In this document: positions 18,834 to 64,000 of the stretch, piece by piece
Numbering within the stretch: position 1 is the first letter of the stretch
How the letters are laid out: the number at the start of each line of letters is the position of its first letter
From: Syntrophus sp. (in: bacteria)
GTDB lineage: Bacteria > Desulfobacterota > Syntrophia > Syntrophales > UBA8958
DNA: 64,000 bases
Direction: 5' to 3'
Assembly (NCBI GenBank): GCA_025355725.1
Contig: JANXZC010000182.1
Coordinates: 33,885 to 97,884 of the forward strand
Translations under genes and position numbers: made by a program
Notes under the pieces: model-generated
Databases searched by the model: none
Seen by the model: only the letters and a program-made list of their open reading frames with translations
What the model was told of the DNA's origin: nothing

Positions 18834-18849
18834 GAAAAATACTGATCAT

Positions 18850-18932
18850 CTTTCCGCCACTCCCTACGCTGGCATTACCCAGGTCAGGTTCAAAGGGTAT
18901 CTTCTCAGCCTTATCGGCGCCCCTGTCAACTA
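18850..18932 (-). ncRNA. TPP (THI-box) riboswitch
   Basis: The minus strand reads CAGGGGCGCCGATAAGGCTGAGAAGATACCCTTTGAACCTGACCTGGGTAATGCCAGCGTAGGGAGTGG. This contains the conserved GGGG, CTGAGA, ACCC, GAACCTGA, TAATGCCAGCGTAGGGA blocks. Confidence 0.9.
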
Positions 18933-19015
18933 TTTACGGACACGACTACACCAGCCCCGGCCGCAAAAGGTGATGTGCGATCCTACGAATCTATTTTTGG
19001 AAAAGCAAGGATTTT

Positions 19016-55152: not shown

Positions 55153-56322
55153 ATGAATGATTCCTTCTCCCACTACTCCGCAAAACTCGTCCGGGCCGGT
55201 CTTGCCGAAGCGGAAACGCCCCTCCTGGGGTTCGGGGAGGGATTACTCATCTGGAACCGGGAAGACCCCCTGACCGTACTACTAACAAAAGTGGGCGAAC
55301 GCCTTGGCCGCCGGGCCATCCTGTACTGTCAACCGGCGGAACCTTATCACACCATGCTTCTCCACTTGGCGGAGACCGCCGCCGGTGGCGACGTTATTCA
55401 TCCCCAGGATTTTGAAACCAGGATATTTCTCAAGGACCTCCCCATCCTGAAGGATCTTACCGAGGCCGGGCTCCTTGTCGCCCTGAAAGACCGCCGCTGT
55501 GTGGTCATCCCCGGTGGAGGCGTCATCGCCACGGCAAAAAAGGATATGGAAACGGCCTTTGTCATCTACAGCGCCGCCTGCTTTGCCGTCTTTGTCAAAT
55601 TCTTTTCCGATACGCTCCGGCAGCGGCATCTGTCGGGTCCGTCATGGCAAGGGCGGGCGGTCCTGGAAGCGATTATGGGTCGTCTCGACCCCGTTCCCCC
55701 GGTGGCGGCGGGTCCGACCTTGAGTTCCGGCCCCTGGGAAGATGAGGCAGACATCCGGGCGGCCATGGTGGTGGCAGGTAAGAGGACCGTCTCTGATCGC
55801 CTGGTAGATGCCAATTTCGGCAATATCTCCTACCGCCGGGGGGAAGATCTTTTCATCACCCGCAAGGGGAGCGCCCTGGACGCCCTTACAGACAAGATCA
55901 TCCGCATCCCCTTGGCAGGACCGACAGAGACGGACGCCATTGCCTCGACGGAGTTGCCGGCCCATCGGTTTATCGCCCTGACGGCACCTTACCGCGCCGT
56001 CCTCCATGGGCACCCGAAATTCTCCGTCATCATGTCCATGGCCTGCGGGGAAGAAGATTGCCCGGACAAGGGCGGATGCCATCGTTTCTGCCCCCGGGAA
56101 AGATGGATCCGGGACATCCCCGTCGTCTCCGGCGAGGCCGGGGCAGGTCCCTTCGGCCTCTGCAATACCGTACCTTCGGCCGTCCGGGACCACGGCGCCG
56201 CCATTGTTTACGGGCATGGCGTCTTCACCGCCGGAGCGCAGGACTTCAACGAGGCCCTGCAGCGCCTGCGGCAAATCGAAAAAACCTGCCGGGATTTATT
56301 TTTCCGGACGATCGGCTTTTGA
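55153..56322 (+). CDS. Class II aldolase/adducin-fold protein with degenerate N-terminal duplicate domain and a 4-Cys insertion
   Basis: The C-terminal half has ANFGNISYRRG...FITRKGSA, LHGHP and YGHGVFTAG (class II aldolase zinc and active-site pattern). The N-terminal ~190 aa look like a decayed copy (GGGVIATAKKDMETAF). CGEEDCPDKGGCHRFC is inserted after the His motif. Confidence 0.6.
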   Translation: MNDSFSHYSAKLVRAGLAEAETPLLGFGEGLLIWNREDPLTVLLTKVGERLGRRAILYCQPAEPYHTMLLHLAETAAGGDVIHPQDFETRIFLKDLPILKDLTEAGLLVALKDRRCVVIPGGGVIATAKKDMETAFVIYSAACFAVFVKFFSDTLRQRHLSGPSWQGRAVLEAIMGRLDPVPPVAAGPTLSSGPWEDEADIRAAMVVAGKRTVSDRLVDANFGNISYRRGEDLFITRKGSALDALTDKIIRIPLAGPTETDAIASTELPAHRFIALTAPYRAVLHGHPKFSVIMSMACGEEDCPDKGGCHRFCPRERWIRDIPVVSGEAGAGPFGLCNTVPSAVRDHGAAIVYGHGVFTAGAQDFNEALQRLRQIEKTCRDLFFRTIGF

Positions 56323-56927: not shown

Positions 56928-58666
56928 ATGGAACGGACCAAGCAGGAGATCACCGAGATCCTGGATGAACTGGCCCTCCTTTTGGAAATGAAGGGTGAAA
57001 ATCCATTCAAATCGAGGGCCTATGCAAATGCCGCCCGCAGTCTTGAAGCCCTGGATGAGGACCTGGACCTGGTTGTCCGGGAAGGCAGGCTGGCCACCAT
57101 CAAAGGGGTAGGCGAAGCCATCAGCAAGAAAATCGAGGAACTGGCCGCGACGGGACAGCTCAGATACTATCACGATCTCAAGGCCACCATTCCCGCCGGC
57201 CATTTCGAGATGCTTAAAATTCCGGGCCTGGGCCCCAAGAAAATCCATATCCTTTATGAAAAACTGGGAATTCAAACCATCGGGGAGCTGGAATACGCCT
57301 GCCAGGAGAACCGCCTCCTCGATCTGCCGGGATTCGGCAGTAAAACCCAACAGAAGATCCTTGCCGGCATTGATGCCTTAAAGCACTACCGGGAGCGACG
57401 CCTCTACACCGAAGTAATTGCCGAGGCGATGGACCTCCGGAAGTTTCTGACCGATCAGCGGGGCGTCATTGCCGCCGGCATCGCCGGATCGCTCCGCCGG
57501 GGCAACGAGGTCGTCAAGGATATTGACCTCCTGGCGGCCACGGACGATCATCTCCTCCTCGCCGACGCCTTTGCCTCCTCCCCCTGCCTCAGGCGGCATC
57601 CGTCATTGCCAAGGGGGACACCAAGGTAAGCGTGACCCTCCGCTCCGGGATCAACGCCGATCTCCGTATCGTGTCCCCCTCCCAATACCCCTACGCCCTC
57701 CATCACTTCACCGGCAGTCGGGAACACAATACGGCCCTCCGGGGGCGGGCAAAAAAGCTTGGTTTGAAAATGAATGAATACGGACTCTTCCGGGAAGAAG
57801 AGAACCTCTTGTGTCACAGCGAGGAGGATATTTTCGCCGTCCTGGATTTGCCCTATATTCCCCCGGAGCTTAGGGAAAACATGGGGGAAATCGAGGCGGC
57901 CGCAGCGGGAGAGCTTCCCCGGCTGGTGGAAACAGGGGATATGCGTGGCGTCCTGCACATCCACACCCAGGCCAGTGACGGCGCCGATTCTCTGGAGGCG
58001 CTGGTCCGGGAAGCCAAACGGCGGGGATACGCCTATATCGGCGTCAGCGACCACAGCCAGTCCGCCTATTACGCCGGGGGACTCTCGCCGGACGCCGTCC
58101 GGCGCCAGCATGAAGCCATAGACAGCATCAACGCCGGGGAAGAGACATTTCACATCTTCAAGGGCATCGAGGCCGACATCCTCCCCGATGGCCGCCTCGA
58201 CTATGACGATGAAACGCTGGAACGGTTCGATTTTGTCATTGCCGCCGTCCATTCCCATTTCCAGATGGCCGAGGAAGAGATGACCGTGAGGATCATCAAG
58301 GCCCTGGCCAATCCCTTCACCACGATCCTCGCCCACCCGACCGGACGGCTGCTGCTGGCCAGGGAACCATATGCCCTGGACATCCACCGGGTGATCGATG
58401 CCGCCGCCGCGAACGGAAAGGTCATCGAACTCAACGCCAATCCCCTGCGCCTCGACCTGGACTGGCGCCACTGCATCTACGCGAAGAGAAAGGGTGTAAA
58501 GATCGCCGTCAATCCCGACCTTCATAATCTGGCCGGCTTCGATTATATGGAAGGGGGCGTAACCATCGCCCGGAAGGGATGGATGGAGAGGGAAGATTGC
58601 CTGAACTGTATGGAGCTGGAAGAAATAAGGGAATATTTCCTGCGTCTGCGGAACCTTAAAAGATGA
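56928..58666 (+). pseudogene. polX: Family X DNA polymerase with C-terminal PHP domain (PolX), interrupted by a 1-nt frameshift
   Basis: ORF 56928-57629 carries the HhH and pol-beta palm (GVGEAISKKI, GSLRRGNEVVKDIDLL). ORF frame +2 continues with ...QAASVIAKGDTKVSVTLRSGINADLRIV...FTGSREHN and the PHP domain (HIHTQASDG...). The frames switch at the C5 run at 57580-57584, and adding one C gives the contiguous ...AFASSPLPQAASVIAKGDTK... Confidence 0.8.
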
Positions 58667-59039
58667 GTATCCGGGGAAATGGTAGTATATGAAGGCCATC
58701 AAATACTGGCTTGCCACAGACATCTTCCCGTAATCGTGATTTTGCGCTGAAGATTTGGGATAGTAGCTTTCATTTGGTACAGTTCATGAGGGATCAATGG
58801 AAATGTCGATGGCAACTGTTACCGCTGTCATCTACAACTCAGTAAGAGACCAACTCTAAAAAAACAATGAATCCTGATTGAAACGTGCATATTTTTTAAC
58901 GTGATGTTTTGAGCGCATGGAAATAATCTACGATCTTCATTGGCGTATTGAATAATAAGTGATAAGAAATACGAACATTGAAGAGGATGCAACCTATGAG
59001 CAATCAATATTATCAAAAGTCAAGAAAGGAGATTGTCTT

Positions 59040-59414
59040 GTGATTCAGTTAAAAGGTAGAAATAGACTGCGGTTGTTATTCGTGGCTCTAATCATGATAG
59101 GGCTTTTCACTATGGCTTCCTGTGCGGCAATTCAACAACAACAAACGTATCACAGCATCGTGATGAAAGGCAGCATCATTCACACAACCGATGACAGCGT
59201 ATACTTGTGCATCGGCAAAAAAGACGGCGCCTCCGTTGGTCAGGAACTGGACGTCTACAGAATGACTTTCACTGGTCATCCAAAGGCGCCCTCATTTATG
59301 AGAGAGAAGACAGGAAAGGTAAAAATTACGGAAATTGTCGATGAACACTTTGCAACAGCTGTTATCGTTTCAGGCAAGGCAGAGAAGAATGATATTGTAG
59401 AATTGGTTCGATGA
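59040..59414 (+). CDS. Small putative lipoprotein (AT-rich islet)
   Basis: A GTG start sits 7 nt after an aaaggaga RBS. A basic n-region and hydrophobic core end in TMASC|AA (atypical lipobox). I recognise no family. Confidence 0.45.
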   Translation: MIQLKGRNRLRLLFVALIMIGLFTMASCAAIQQQQTYHSIVMKGSIIHTTDDSVYLCIGKKDGASVGQELDVYRMTFTGHPKAPSFMREKTGKVKITEIVDEHFATAVIVSGKAEKNDIVELVR

Positions 59415-59726
59415 AAAGATAAGATCATTAACAAAGAAGCGAGCTACTCGGACTGTATTGGCGACGGCTCGCTTTTATTGTTTTAGCGAGCAAAGATCTG
59501 TCCATCCATCAAATATCTCATAATTATCTTTGTATTACCGGATGCTCTCTTTAAGGAGGGAGAGGATGGCGAATTCATCAAGAAAATGCATACTTGCTTA
59601 CTTGCATGTTACAACCAGAACTGATCAGGTGAGAGAGAATGAAATATGGGCGGTACAGGTTATAGGCACCATCTAAAGCTGTCTAGAAGTATCTATTCAC
59701 CAGAAACGATGATTACGGATAGAAAC

Positions 59727-59763
59727 TAATAAGCCGTCCCATCGGAGAACGAGACGGCTTATT
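59727..59763. terminator. Hairpin terminator candidate downstream of the uspA-like gene
   Basis: TAATAAGCCGTC-13 nt-GACGGCTTATTA is a 12-bp perfect stem. The flanks are AT-rich rather than clean U-tracts. Confidence 0.45.
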
Positions 59764-59828
59764 ATGAATTGTCGATTGAATTTTATTACTGCTGACACTT
59801 TCAACCGCACCAGACACAACTTTTAGTA

Positions 59829-60278
59829 TTATGGTTTAACAACTATGACAGGGCATTTTGAGCCTTTGACTACTTTATCTGCGACGCTACCCATAAGCTG
59901 TTTAATAATCCCTGTCTTTCCATGAGATGCAATTACAATTAAATCAATCTTCTTCGCTTTCTGCTCGCTTAATATCACTTCAGAGGGGACACCATTCTTA
60001 ACGTCAAAAATAACTTTTATCTTCTTCGTCTTGATAATTGCATCAGCTTCTTTTTTTAGCTTGTCTCTGGACGCCTTTACGCTATCCTTTTCAAGTTTGG
60101 TGACAACCTCAATACTGAGGCAGTAATCAACTGCACATTGGCGTATTTGCTCATCAATAACATGTAACAGGTAAATATTGGTATCATTCCCGGTTGCAAT
60201 GTCAACTGCCTTCTTTAATGCCGCATCTGAATATTTTGAAAAATCTGTCGGAACAAGGATATTCTTTGGTGCAAACAT
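59829..60278 (-). CDS. Universal stress protein (UspA family)
   Basis: ILVPTDFS...LLHV at the N-terminus, and the ATP-binding C-terminus IVIASHGKTGIIKQLMGSVADKVVKGSKCPVIVV. Confidence 0.85.
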   Translation of the reverse strand: MFAPKNILVPTDFSKYSDAALKKAVDIATGNDTNIYLLHVIDEQIRQCAVDYCLSIEVVTKLEKDSVKASRDKLKKEADAIIKTKKIKVIFDVKNGVPSEVILSEQKAKKIDLIVIASHGKTGIIKQLMGSVADKVVKGSKCPVIVVKP

Positions 60279-60358
60279 GATCTCTCCTCCTTTTTTTTTC
60301 GATGCCCCATTCTATATCATAAAATTTTATTTTACAAATCATTTTCAATCACGGCTCT

Positions 60359-60931
60359 TTAACCAGTGGTTTGCTGATTTTGCTGTAGGCTTTCCATTAA
60401 CCGTCTTAAAATTATTAGCTGCTCCTGTTGAATTGAAATCAGCTCACTCCACTGTTTCTCCCTGAGTAAATCAACTTTCTCATGAAGCCCTATTATTTCA
60501 AGCTCTGCCTTTAAGTTGACTTCATAATCGTGTTCGGCACTTAGTCGATCCTTATAGGCCTGACGATTTTGAGACATCAAAATAATTGGAGCTTGAATGG
60601 CCGCAAGCATAGATAATACAAGATTTAGTAGGATGTATGGATATGGATCAAATGAGTGTTTAAGCTTGATTAGGATAAATGAATTCAGGATAATCCATAT
60701 AGCCATTACAGCCATGAATATGGAGATGAAGATCCAAGATCCCCCAAAAGAAGCAACTTTATCAGCCAGCTTCTGGCCAGTAGTCAATTGCACGGAAAAG
60801 TCTTGAACGACATTTGTAGAAATAGGAGTTCTTTCGGTTATGTGCTGAGCAACATGTCTTTCTATTTCAGTAAGCTTTTCATAATTAGAACCAAATATCT
60901 TTTCCGCTGTCTCGCGAACTTTCTGTTCCAT
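60359..60931 (-). CDS. DUF1003 family membrane protein
   Basis: LADKVASFGGSW, two TM helices, DPYPYILLNLVLS...QAPIILMSQNRQ, and a C-terminal coiled coil. Confidence 0.75.
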   Translation of the reverse strand: MEQKVRETAEKIFGSNYEKLTEIERHVAQHITERTPISTNVVQDFSVQLTTGQKLADKVASFGGSWIFISIFMAVMAIWIILNSFILIKLKHSFDPYPYILLNLVLSMLAAIQAPIILMSQNRQAYKDRLSAEHDYEVNLKAELEIIGLHEKVDLLREKQWSELISIQQEQLIILRRLMESLQQNQQTTG

Positions 60932-61367
60932 CGTGCTAACCTCTTTAGAGTTGAATGACGGCGCGACTCAATGGCCGCAAACATTTGAGCGGTTCTGATC
61001 AAGCAAATTAATGAATACCTTCTGAAATCTTACATAATTAATAAATTTCTTCAATGGAAGCTTTCAGGAAGAATGGATGACCTCTCTATTTAGAAAATGA
61101 ACTATCCGCCTCTCGCATGTTTCCACCCGTAATCATTGACCACTTCTTATGAATGATAGTCTCGATTTGCAGCCGCAGTTGATAAGCGGCACTGCATATT
61201 TTTCCTGTTTCACCCACCTGTTCAGTTCGGGGTGTAATGAATATGGCTGTTCTGGCATATTCGTCAGGTGACGGATTGCTGTCATGAGGCCGGATGATTT
61301 GTATAGCGAAAAATAGTGATTGACAAGAAACAAAAAAGTTGATAGCCAAACCGACACTGAGGAAAAA

Positions 61368-61445
61368 ATGAAGCAGACAACCTTTTCGATGAACAATAAC
61401 TGGTGGTGGCAAAGCACAGGGAGGGGTCTGCGCGCTGCCGGTTGA
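61368..61445 (+). CDS. trpL: trp operon leader peptide (25 aa, three consecutive Trp codons)
   Basis: My own translation is MKQTTFSMNNNWWWQSTGRGLRAAG. TGGTGGTGG lies at 61401-61409, a tgagga RBS sits 5-6 nt upstream, and the ORF is ~130 nt upstream of trpE. Confidence 0.7.
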   Translation: MKQTTFSMNNNWWWQSTGRGLRAAG

Positions 61446-61467
61446 ATGACATAACATAAACCATTTG

Positions 61468-61558
61468 GGCCGTGGAGACCTTCTCAGGACTCCACGGCCT
61501 TTTTATTTACTATATAACCGTACCGAAAAAAGGCCGTGAGCAATCACGGCCTTTTTTT
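61468..61558 (+). promoter_or_regulatory. trp attenuator: four interchangeable hairpin segments with two U-tracts
   Basis: Seg1 is GGCCGTGGAG (61468-77) and seg2 is CTCCACGGCC (61490-99) plus TTTTTATTT. Seg3 is GGCCGTGA (61532-39) and seg4 is TCACGGCC (61544-51) plus TTTTTTT. An alternative 12-bp pairing joins CACGGCCTTTTT (61493-504) with AAAAAGGCCGTG (61527-38). Confidence 0.7.
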
Positions 61559-61573
61559 ATTGGCAGGAGGAAT

Positions 61574-63076
61574 ATGTACTACCCGGATTTGGAAACATTC
61601 AAGAAATTGTCCCGCGAAGGAAACCTGATCCCCGTTTACCGGGAGATCCTGGCCGACGTGGAAACGCCCGTAACGGCCTTAATCAAGCTGGCCGCCCAAT
61701 CCCATGTCTTTCTCCTGGAGAGCGTGGAAGGGGGCGAAAAATGGGGGCGCTACTCATTCCTCGGCGCCGATCCCCGGGTGGTCTTCCGCGTCCTCGGTGC
61801 AGAGGTCGAGATCAGGAACAACGGCCAGGTCCAACGCTTTGCCCATGGCGGAGACCCCCTCAGGCATCTTCAGGAGCTCCTGAAAAAATACCGTCCCGTC
61901 CCGTCGCCGGGATTGCCGCGCTTCTATGGCGGCGCCGTGGGCTACCTCGGCTACGGGATGGTGCGTTATTTCGAGAAGCTGCCCACCCGCGCCCCCGATG
62001 ATCTCGGGACCGATGAGGCCGTCTTTCTCCTGACCGATACCATCCTGATCTTCGATAATATCCGTCATACCATCAAGATTGTGGCCTGCGCCTTTATCGA
62101 TGAGGACGGCGGCGCCTCCTCACCGGAGGAAATCTACGGGGAAGCGACAAGGAAGATTGACGCCCTCATGGCAATCCTGCAAAACACTGCCCCTCTGCCC
62201 CCCCTGACCCCGTCCGCCCAGGACGGTACCGGCGTGACGGCCAACATGACGGCGGAAGATTTCAAGGCCATGGTGCGGAGGACCAAGGAATACATCATCA
62301 ACGGGGATATCATCCAGGCGGTCCTTTCCCAGCGTTTTCAGATAGATAACGATATCGACCCGATCCATCTCTACCGGGCCCTCCGTTTCGTGAATCCCTC
62401 GCCCTATCTCTTTTTCCTGAAGGCCGGGGATATGACCCTCATCGGCTCCTCTCCCGAGGTTCTGGTCCGCCTGGAGGAGGGTGTCGCCGAGCTGCGGCCC
62501 ATCGCCGGCACGCGGCGGCGGGGCAGGACGGAGCAGGAGGACCGGATCATGGCCGACGAACTGCTCCAGGACCCCAAGGAAAAAGCGGAACACGTGATGC
62601 TGGTGGATCTGGGAAGAAACGACCTGGGACGGATCGCCCAGACGGGGAGCGTCCAGGTAAACCAGCTCATGGCGGTAGAGCGCTATTCTCACGTCATGCA
62701 CCTCGTCTCTCACATCCAGGCCCAATTGGCGGCGGGCAAGGACGCCTTCGACGTCATCCGGGCGGCATTTCCCGCCGGGACCCTCACCGGAGCCCCCAAA
62801 GTGCGGGCGATGGAGATCATCGAAGAATTGGAACCCCACCAGCGGGGTCCCTACGGCGGAGCCGTCGGCTATTTCAGTTTTACCGGCAATATGGATTTCG
62901 GAATCACGATCCGGACCATGCTGCTCAAGGACAACCGGATCTTTATCCAGGCCGGAGCGGGGATAGTCGCCGACTCAGATCCGGATGCGGAATATGAGGA
63001 AACCAAAAGCAAGGCCGCCGGGATGCTCAAGGCCATTCGTCTGGCCGCCTCGGGCTTTGAAATTATGGACTTATAA
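61574..63076 (+). CDS. trpE: Anthranilate synthase component I
   Basis: LLESVEGGEKWGRYSF, the LRPIAGTRRRG context and GAVGYFSF. ATG at 61574 follows an aggagg RBS. The tracked 61472 start reads through the attenuator. Confidence 0.95.
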   Translation: MYYPDLETFKKLSREGNLIPVYREILADVETPVTALIKLAAQSHVFLLESVEGGEKWGRYSFLGADPRVVFRVLGAEVEIRNNGQVQRFAHGGDPLRHLQELLKKYRPVPSPGLPRFYGGAVGYLGYGMVRYFEKLPTRAPDDLGTDEAVFLLTDTILIFDNIRHTIKIVACAFIDEDGGASSPEEIYGEATRKIDALMAILQNTAPLPPLTPSAQDGTGVTANMTAEDFKAMVRRTKEYIINGDIIQAVLSQRFQIDNDIDPIHLYRALRFVNPSPYLFFLKAGDMTLIGSSPEVLVRLEEGVAELRPIAGTRRRGRTEQEDRIMADELLQDPKEKAEHVMLVDLGRNDLGRIAQTGSVQVNQLMAVERYSHVMHLVSHIQAQLAAGKDAFDVIRAAFPAGTLTGAPKVRAMEIIEELEPHQRGPYGGAVGYFSFTGNMDFGITIRTMLLKDNRIFIQAGAGIVADSDPDAEYEETKSKAAGMLKAIRLAASGFEIMDL

Positions 63077-63088
63077 GGAGAAATCACA

Positions 63089-63688
63089 ATGATACTGATG
63101 ATCGACAATTACGATTCCTTTACCTACAACCTCGTCCAGTACCTCCAGCAGATGGGCCGGGAGGTGGCCGTTTACCGCAACGATGAGATCACGGTGGCGG
63201 AAATTGAAAACATGGATGTGGAGGCCATCTTTCTCTCTCCCGGTCCCTGTTCTCCTAAGGAAGCGGGGGTCACCGTGGAGATCGTCCGGCGTTTTCATCA
63301 GACGATTCCCATTATGGGGGTTTGCCTGGGGCATCAGGCCATCGGCTTCGCCTTCGGCGGCGAGGTGGTCCGGGCGGATAAGGTCATGCACGGCAAGAGC
63401 TCACCTATTAGCAACGATGGGCGGACCATCTTTCAGGGCCTTCCCGACCCCTTTACGGCGGGGCGCTACCATTCCCTGATCGTGAAGCGGGACACCCTGC
63501 CTGCCTGCCTGGAGGTCACCGCCGAGACCGAGGAGGGGGAGATTATGGGCCTCCGCCACCGGGAATATCCCGTGGAGGGGATACAGTTCCATCCCGAATC
63601 GATCCTGACGCCCCAGGGCAAACGGATCATCCGGAATTTTTTGAATCTGGTGGACAAGAGCGAGAAACACTATGCGCGAGTCGCTTGA
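63089..63688 (+). CDS. trpG: Anthranilate synthase component II (glutamine amidotransferase)
   Basis: [25 protein letters not shown] (catalytic Cys) and GIQFHPES. Confidence 0.95.
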
Positions 63689-63766
63689 AGCTGTAATAAA
63701 TCATTTCGAGAAATTACAACATACTAACACAGGCGGCCAAGTCGCCGTTTTAAGAAGGAGGATGGT

Positions 63767-64000
63767 ATGATCAAGGGAGCAATAGCGAGGATAGTCAGCG
63801 GTGTCAACCTGCGGGAAGGGGAGATGGTAGCGGCAATGACGGAGATCATGGAAGGTCAGGCCACCCCGGCCCAGATCGGGGCCTTCATGACGGCCCTGCG
63901 CCTGAAGGGGGAAACCAGCGAAGAGGTCACCGGCGCCGCCCGGGTGATGAGACTGAAGGCGACCCGGATCGACGCCCGGTCGTCGACCATTGTCGATACC
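63767..64000 (+). CDS. trpD: Anthranilate phosphoribosyltransferase, 3' end cut by window edge
   Basis: My own translation from ATG 63767 (aaggagg RBS) is [61 protein letters not shown]..., the canonical TrpD N-terminus. The ORF is open to the window end. Confidence 0.9.

Follow-up and report, generated by a model that had tools for sequence, protein, structure and literature searches.

How could a ribosome translating a short leader peptide decide the fate of two terminator hairpins when its tryptophan codons lie some 60 nt upstream of the first of them? The question is raised by the region ahead of trpE-trpG-trpD in a Syntrophales bacterium, which we analysed as part of a 64,000-nt stretch of DNA (the window, numbered from its first nucleotide). 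Leader-peptide attenuation is a textbook mechanism, for which experimental characterisation has come mostly from Gammaproteobacteria, Alphaproteobacteria and Actinobacteria. A preliminary description of the same DNA had read the region as ribosome-mediated trp attenuation with a duplicated terminator, and had left the transmission of the stall as a puzzle, having noticed upstream of the first hairpin only a weak GGGGTCT:AGACCTT pairing. Our analysis suggests that the region is very probably a ribosome-sensing tryptophan attenuator, in which, judging from the sequence evidence, a single stall event would seem to inactivate two terminators in series, by way of six RNA segments that pair alternately with their neighbours. 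We number these segments 1 to 6 and refer to helix 1:2 as P1, to 2:3 and 4:5 as antiterminators 1 and 2 (AT1, AT2), and to 3:4 and 5:6 as the predicted terminators T1 and T2 (Table 1).

The 25-codon ORF with three Trp codons and a good ribosome binding site that had been described ahead of trpE is present in the window, and its position relative to T1 had been well estimated, with 59 nt measured from the last Trp codon (about 60 nt in the earlier description) and 22 nt from the leader stop. The codon run TGGTGGTGG occurs twice in the 64-kb window versus 0.38 expected occurrences. The promoter-like site upstream of the ORF was absent from the output of a consensus promoter scan, and its -10 element is weak; most homologous leaders have a TTGAC box 48-59 nt 5' of their start codon, and homology to close relatives begins at position 61309, 11 nt 5' of the -35 box. 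Most of the 35 homologous leaders considered below likewise have a Shine-Dalgarno-like motif ahead of the start codon. The 231-nt leader folds to -80.1 kcal/mol, compared with -57.3 ± 4.5 kcal/mol for dinucleotide shuffles (z = -5.1), and none of 200 shuffles was as good.

Table 1. Features of the putative trp attenuator and the adjoining genes, in window coordinates.
Feature	Position	Strand	Basis or remarks
Promoter-like site (putative)	61320-61348	+	-35 TTGACA 61320-61325, 17-nt spacer, extended -10 TGaTAGCCA 61340-61348
Shine-Dalgarno GAGGA of leader ORF	61359-61363	+	Read directly; GAGGA-N4-ATG 61359-61370
Leader peptide ORF (trpL-like), 25 codons, MKQTTFSMNNNWWWQSTGRGLRAAG*	61368-61445	+	ATG 61368, TGA 61443-61445
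Segment 1, 5' strand of helix P1 (1:2), contains Trp codons	61398-61411	+	Leader-only minimum free energy (MFE) fold, alignment, RNAalifold
Three consecutive Trp codons TGGTGGTGG, proposed sensor	61401-61409	+	Near-invariant columns in alignment A1
Segment 2, conserved motif GGGAGGGGUCUGCGCGCUGCCGGUU, 3' strand of P1 and 5' strand of AT1	61419-61443	+	Nucleotide conservation, pairing with 61468-61485
Small hairpin in AT1 loop, GGUU..AUG/CAU.AACC	61440-61462	+	Folding; window's own clade only
Segment 3, 5' arm and loop of predicted terminator T1	61467-61485	+	Pairs with segment 4 (T1) or segment 2 (AT1)
Segment 4, 3' arm of T1 and U tract UUUUUAUUU	about 61490 to 61504-61508	+	T1 pairing, AT2 pairing
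Segment 5, A tract and 5' arm of predicted terminator T2	61526-61539	+	Pairs with segment 6 (T2) or segment 4 (AT2)
Segment 6, 3' arm of T2 and U7 tract	61544-61558	+	T2 pairing; T2 loop GCAA 61540-61543
Shine-Dalgarno AGGAGG of trpE	61565-61570	+	Read directly
trpE, anthranilate synthase component I, first regulated gene (proposed)	61574-63076	+	Pfam Chorismate_bind 9e-97, Anth_synt_I_N 1e-37
trpG, glutamine amidotransferase	63089-63688	+	Pfam GATase 2e-62
trpD, N-terminal part, continues past window end	63767-64000	+	Pfam Glycos_trans_3N 2e-22

From 160 trpE loci taken from genomes and metagenomes, removal of duplicates left 35 non-redundant leaders with the layout of an ORF followed by hairpins, all of them from Syntrophales except for one from a Desulfobacterales metagenome-assembled genome (MAG; leader L073). 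The closest TrpE matches were to Syntrophales, Syntrophaceae or Syntrophus MAGs at 82-97% identity. The leader follows the trpE clade, being present at TrpE identities of at least 61%, and among about 100 more distant loci only L073 has the layout. In nearly all loci with a TrpE identity of at least 61% the Trp codon run lies 158-192 nt 5' of the trpE start; in L098, L105 and L106 it lies 246-330 nt upstream, with the extra sequence placed 3' of the hairpins. The Trp-rich ORF proved to be kept across the homologous leaders, where it typically has 15-26 codons, starts mostly at an ATG with a Shine-Dalgarno sequence, and contains WWW or WWWW in 34 of the 35 cases (WRW in L017). The stop codon ends at a fixed distance of 39-48 nt from the first Trp codon.

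Within the leader peptide itself only the Trp run is conserved, the N-terminal part being unconserved. At the nucleotide level, the string GGAGGGGUCUG-(Y)CCGCCGCU is conserved across leaders 3' of the Trp codons, yet the leaders differ in the frame used to translate GGAGGGGUCUG, with all three represented (window, GRGL; L011, GEGSV; L012, IGGVC), suggesting that selection acts on the RNA and not on the peptide. This pattern is hard to reconcile with the view that the short ORF, T1 and T2 make up a separate small gene, for a peptide or a small RNA, that always terminates, trpE being transcribed from a promoter of its own. Such a view would draw on Sinorhizobium, where trans action has been reported both for leader peptides and for RNAs derived from attenuators (PMC6614838, PMC7298713). 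We consider it very unlikely, since the end of T2 and the trpE start are only 15 nt apart in the window (12-38 nt in most leaders), which leaves no room for a separate trpE promoter, and since the antiterminator described below is conserved as well.

The two U-tailed hairpins with near-identical stems noticed earlier are confirmed as T1 (61467-61504) and T2 (61526-61558). For T1, GGCCGTGGAG (61468-61477; also written GGCCGUGGAG) pairs with CTCCACGGCC (61490-61499; also CUCCACGGCC) and is followed by TTTTTATTT; the hairpin has an energy of -25.7 kcal/mol and a U5 tail, and its pairs are kept in 96% of alignment cells, with compensatory changes. T2 consists, in order, of A6 (61526-61531) and GGCCGUGA, the loop GCAA, and UCACGGCC and U7 (T7 in the DNA, 61552-61558), with GGCCGTGA (61532-61539) pairing with TCACGGCC (61544-61551); 92.5% of its alignment cells are paired, and seven pairs have changed on both sides. 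A simple terminator scan listed neither hairpin, probably because the apical part of T1 exceeds its 8-nt loop limit and because the A tract draws the U tract of T2 into the stem. Hairpins with GGCCGTG were not found as a repeated element elsewhere in the genome window. That T1 might merely end an unrelated transcript coming from upstream, a possibility raised in the preliminary description and suggested by its intergenic position and nothing else, is contradicted by the gene arrangement, because the nearest upstream genes (DUF1003 and Usp) are on the minus strand and lie within a low-GC insertion of 2.65 kb, which close relatives lack although they retain the leader and T1. The T1 5' arm also co-varies with the leader ORF motif, and we assign this explanation next to no probability.

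The puzzle of how stalling could be transmitted arose because the strand first taken as segment 1 corresponds to segment 3 of the classical scheme, the classical segments 1 and 2 being located inside the leader ORF. By eye, the segment before the stop codon shows only interrupted matches to the T1 5' arm; the full helix was seen on folding without the T1 3' arm, the situation while transcription is under way. This helix, AT1, has 17 bp (61419-25:61479-85, 61427-29:61476-78, 61431-34:61471-74 and 61437-39:61468-70) and an energy of -26.7 kcal/mol including its inner hairpin (61415-61488 folded with the T1 3' arm withheld). The GGGGTCT:AGACCTT pairing noticed earlier is real and forms the middle of AT1, but the apparent lack of an upstream partner for the T1 5' arm did not hold, as the helix spans 61419-61439:61468-61485. 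Its 5' strand starts 10 nt 3' of the last Trp codon, and its end lies 4 nt 5' of the stop. The AT1 helix was found in all 35 non-redundant leaders at -14.6 to -31.9 kcal/mol, with duplex energies of -21 to -30 kcal/mol versus -10 to -20 kcal/mol for shuffled motifs, and 91.3% of its cells in alignment A1 are paired versus 45-63% when the partner is slid. Its middle helix can be drawn in two registers, with 85% of cells paired in the window-specific one and 91% in the common one. Alignment pair 49-82 varies between CG (15 leaders), UA (12) and UG (3).

In the Desulfobacterales leader L073 both AT1 strands differ in sequence (AGUGUGCUCGCCAGGCU, AGCCGUGAGCCACU) yet pair with each other at -25 kcal/mol. 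When these strands were mixed with those of other leaders, the energies weakened to between -11 and -17 kcal/mol, 8-14 kcal/mol worse than the cognate pairing; this exchange is informative for L073 only, and hardly discriminates within Syntrophales, where both strands are conserved.

The competing helix P1 joins 61398-61408 with 61433-61443 at -12.8 kcal/mol, so that its last paired base is the U of the stop codon (the first base of UGA). It is part of the leader-only MFE fold of the window and of the leader-only folds of almost all homologous loci; 88.6% of its alignment cells are paired versus 33-65% when slid, and RNAalifold, run unguided, predicts P1 together with T1 and T2. As is expected of an anti-antiterminator, P1 includes the regulatory codons. 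An alternative 5' partner of the motif at 61373-61387, which appears in the whole-leader MFE, is lost in more distant leaders and was not retained. CCRCYGC is the partner both of the UGG repeats and of GCCGUGG in T1, which makes the T1 5' arm a mimic of the run of Trp codons. With segments 1 and 2 in the leader ORF, and segment 2 able to pair with either segment 1 or segment 3, the leader would thus be a classical 1:2/2:3/3:4 attenuator with an added stage.

The added stage is the 12-bp pairing that had already been described between the T1 3' arm with its U tract and the A tract with the T2 5' arm, for which we obtained 61493-61504 with 61527-61538 at -17.1 kcal/mol (AT2) and 95.4% of alignment cells paired. 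The sole variable stem position, pair 113-160, is AU in 23 leaders, GC in 5 and GU in 3, and is never broken. One rung can be followed across all six strands, in the window as U61407 - G61434 - U61473 - A61494 - U61537 - A61546 (alignment columns 13-44-87-113-160-177). A check for co-variation in aligned trpE upstream regions, as suggested in the preliminary description, was borne out in part, with compensatory changes in T1, in T2 and at pairs 49-82 and 113-160. Many other paired columns are invariant. The excess over shuffles could largely reflect sequence relatedness, and the independent compensatory events visible are few (pairs 49-82 and 113-160, plus L073).

When the region covered by a stalled ribosome is kept from pairing and the T2 5' arm is the last part transcribed, AT1+AT2 is the MFE structure of the window (-43.8 kcal/mol), and the same holds for 28 of the 32 leaders bearing T2, T1 still being preferred in the other 4. 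A constrained fold of the window with the ribosome block on the stop codon instead forms T1 and T2. In these models the ribosome footprint extends about 12 nt 3' of the A site, a textbook value that may not be that of this organism. Once T1 is fully transcribed it outcompetes AT1 at equilibrium, and the relay model therefore depends on the kinetic order of folding. Direct-path barriers estimated with findpath were 16.5 kcal/mol for AT1 -> T1 and 7.6 kcal/mol for AT2 -> T2; the validated 2:3 -> 3:4 transition of E. coli trp gave 5.8 kcal/mol by the same procedure.

These results bear on whether the second terminator is regulated at all. An alternative reading would be a classical single attenuator (T1) followed by an unregulated T2 with a constant frequency of read-through, which would only reduce overall output or provide a back-up, the 4:5 complementarity being a by-product of duplication. 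T2 is present in 32 of the 35 non-redundant leaders, and the three others (L098, L100 and L104) have T1 alone; T2 is therefore dispensable for the basic switch and would be an add-on to a single-terminator device. The 4:5 complementarity is moreover automatic once the T1 and T2 stems are identical, and so could reflect an old duplication, the 7.6 kcal/mol barrier is modest, and covariation peculiar to 4:5 is supported by two or three events. Several observations nevertheless speak for a functional link. T2 is strong (-21.5 kcal/mol, with a GNRA loop and U7) and lies 15 nt ahead of the trpE ATG; if unrelieved, it would severely cap induced expression. The T2 stem repeats the base of T1, GCCG[U/C]G in both, and the two are still identical across leaders with TrpE identities of 61-97%, despite divergence of the loops and of the spacer (11-28 nt). 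T2 is preceded by a conserved A tract that has no comparable counterpart at T1, and in L006 a G of the T1 3' arm pairs with a C of the T2 5' arm (4:5) while T1 itself keeps only U.G at that position. The preference for AT1+AT2 in the intermediate transcripts of most leaders, and an AT2 barrier exceeding that of the proven E. coli antiterminator, point the same way. On balance we consider an unregulated T2 unlikely. The relay would also account for the near-frozen state of the T1 and T2 stems: every strand must match two partners, and the UGG codons fix the sequence of the first.

A relay through six segments is, in our assessment, most probably the best explanation of this leader; the sequences, complementarities, energies, and conservation and covariation are computed results, whereas the ribosome footprints, the folding order and the regulation are inferred. 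When charged tRNA-Trp is plentiful, the ribosome would pass the WWW codons and sit on UGA (61443-61445), masking segment 2, so that 3:4 (T1) and 5:6 (T2) could fold and RNA polymerase would face two intrinsic terminators in series. Without translation, 1:2 would form and T1 and T2 would again fold, with the same outcome. When tRNA-Trp is scarce, the ribosome would stall on WWW and mask segment 1, leaving segment 2 free to capture segment 3 (AT1, 17 bp) while segment 4 has yet to be synthesised. Segment 4, lacking a partner, would in turn capture segment 5 as it emerges (AT2, 12 bp), segment 6 would stay single-stranded, and with both terminators disabled transcription would proceed into trpE.

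More tentatively, T2 may be a second, later checkpoint on the duration of the stall, beyond serving as a back-up, although we would not put this above a possibility. AT2 would form only while segment 4 is still free; if the ribosome resumed after polymerase had passed T1 and before segment 5 had emerged, AT1 would be unzipped, T1 would re-form, and T2 would terminate transcription. Read-through would then need a stall that outlasts about 55 nt of extra transcription, from the U tract of T1 to that of T2. If true, the checkpoint would act as a filter resembling kinetic proofreading, with a sharper response to tRNA-Trp charging and a lower basal level, and it would do so with one sensor, via segments each of which resembles the UGG repeat or is complementary to it.

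Could a factor other than the translating ribosome control termination, with the Trp codons incidental? TRAP-dependent trp attenuation of the Bacillus type uses about 11 (G/U)AG repeats with 2-3 nt spacing that overlap the antiterminator, and no run of four or more such repeats occurs in 61301-61580. The T-box (RF00230), a sensor of uncharged tRNA, was not among the matches at E <= 10 in the leader, nor among those at the gathering threshold in the window and 19 homologous loci; more generally, no relevant Rfam family reached that threshold in either. The one hint of a metabolite riboswitch is a sub-threshold match of the window leader to the Rfam trpB motif (RF04312; 26.4 bits against a gathering score of 59, E = 0.25), which none of the 19 homologous loci carries at threshold. 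That motif is a riboswitch candidate of Firmicutes and Fusobacteria consisting of a hairpin and then an intrinsic terminator, sometimes upstream of trp genes (PMC11109978), and since the match spans only the generic hairpin and terminator, we dismissed it. The Trp run, the Shine-Dalgarno sequence, the start codon and the fixed Trp-to-stop distance are all conserved, and control by a T-box, a TRAP-like protein or a riboswitch therefore seems extremely improbable.

Compared with known systems, the leader has every sequence-level feature of leader-peptide attenuators, namely an ORF with a Shine-Dalgarno sequence, Trp codons, a predicted terminator, an antiterminator and an anti-antiterminator; AT1 and T1 are mutually exclusive, and the constrained folds at either ribosome position give the expected states. 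It shares with E. coli trpL (Rfam Trp_leader, RF00513) a short translated leader with consecutive Trp codons in segment 1, the alternative 1:2, 2:3 and 3:4 pairings, an intrinsic terminator ahead of trpE, and a leader stop placed so that the terminating ribosome would mask segment 2, and the kinetic barriers are similar to or larger than those of E. coli trp. It differs from trpL in lacking sequence or covariance-model similarity (RF00513 gave no match even at E <= 10 in 61000-61800), in having three or four Trp codons instead of two, and in the extra 4:5/5:6 stage with a second full predicted intrinsic terminator. Its odd-numbered segments (GGUGGUGG, GCCGUGG and GGCCGUG) are, unlike those of trpL, mutually alike, as are the even-numbered ones. 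Lopatovskaya et al. (2010) may, reportedly, list deltaproteobacterial candidates. Our literature search found no Syntrophales trp attenuator and no relay from one peptide to two terminators via a shared strand, and a prior prediction may exist elsewhere.

Several partial parallels can be drawn from the excerpts consulted. Sinorhizobium meliloti trpL/rnTrpL is likewise a leader-peptide attenuator directly 5' of trpE(G), and its released attenuator RNA ends in the terminator hairpin, with trans functions reported for both RNA and peptide; those excerpts describe one attenuator releasing one RNA and mention no second terminator, whereas two are predicted here (PMC6614838, PMC7298713). The Salmonella mgtCBR leader, as excerpted, also has more than one termination decision set by short-ORF translation, but it uses two separate short ORFs on separate structures, while here a single stall in one ORF would be relayed via a shared strand (PMC3641672). 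The rimP-leader of some Gammaproteobacteria places two tandem terminators and a potential antiterminator in one 5' leader; in the part consulted, no leader peptide or regulatory codons are mentioned and no relay between its terminators is proposed, and its stems carry inverse motifs where ours carry the same motif (PMC2965389).

If our reading is correct, the mechanism would extend to Syntrophales (former Deltaproteobacteria), with a family missing from Rfam, and its design would be one in which a single stalled ribosome could flip a six-segment chain and disarm two terminators. Should the relay work, it would offer a compact natural means of multiplying termination efficiency with no second sensor, of interest to quantitative models of attenuation sensitivity and to synthetic RNA switches. 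Set beside these systems, the attenuation logic is a known one; the putative six-segment, two-terminator relay is what appears to be new.

In three related leaders of homologous trpE loci (L098, 1239-1503; L100, 1375-1503; L104, 843-957), whose TrpE proteins are ~66% identical to that of the window, the leader ORF with its WWW run, the conserved nucleotide string that follows the Trp codons and the first terminator hairpin, T1, were all kept. No second terminator (T2) of the GGCCGUG type was found in these leader intervals, and the space 5' of trpE was occupied by other, unrelated hairpins. These leaders are natural single-terminator versions of the proposed attenuator. Where T2 is present in the clade of the window, its loop (61540-61543 in the window) is in most leaders a GNRA tetraloop, GCAA or GCGA, with an A-U closing pair, and T2 with such a loop is expected to fold very rapidly; the loops of more distant leaders differ from this type.

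Around the leader stop codon, a three-codon mini-ORF (ATG ACA TAA, 61446-61454) abuts the stop as UGA AUG, and is conserved in the window's own clade only; it is probably incidental. We also observed that an SD-like GGAGG (61421-61425) forms the 5' end of antiterminator 1, the pairing predicted between the leader ORF and T1, and that its pairing partner is an anti-SD-like CCUUCUC in the T1 loop (61479-61485). The string TGGTGGTGG has its sole other copy within the window at 55766-55774 (+).

Further downstream, the 78-nt spacer between trpG and trpD contains, immediately 5' of the trpD SD, a small GC hairpin (GGCGGC-CAA-GUCGCC; 63732-63750, +) followed by GUUUU. The fold of the spacer was non-significant (z = -1.6), and the hairpin could act as a weak internal terminator or have a stabilising role.

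Upstream of the leader lies a block of ~2.65 kb (58656-61308) with a GC content of ~38%, against 54-60% in its surroundings, which carries three genes or ORFs (table). The block is missing in the close relatives L082, L083, and L085, in which the homologous flanks are ~48 nt apart. From this sequence comparison the block looks like an insertion, and one directly adjoining the trp promoter, because its 3' edge sits 11 nt upstream of the trp leader's -35 box.

Features within the low-GC block, and a riboswitch of the same window
Feature	Position	Strand	Remarks
TPP riboswitch	18844-18934	-	Rfam RF00059; 65.4 bits (gathering score 54.3)
151-aa ORF	58959-59414	+	within low-GC block
Usp gene	59829-60278	-	within low-GC block
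DUF1003 gene	60359-60931	-	within low-GC block
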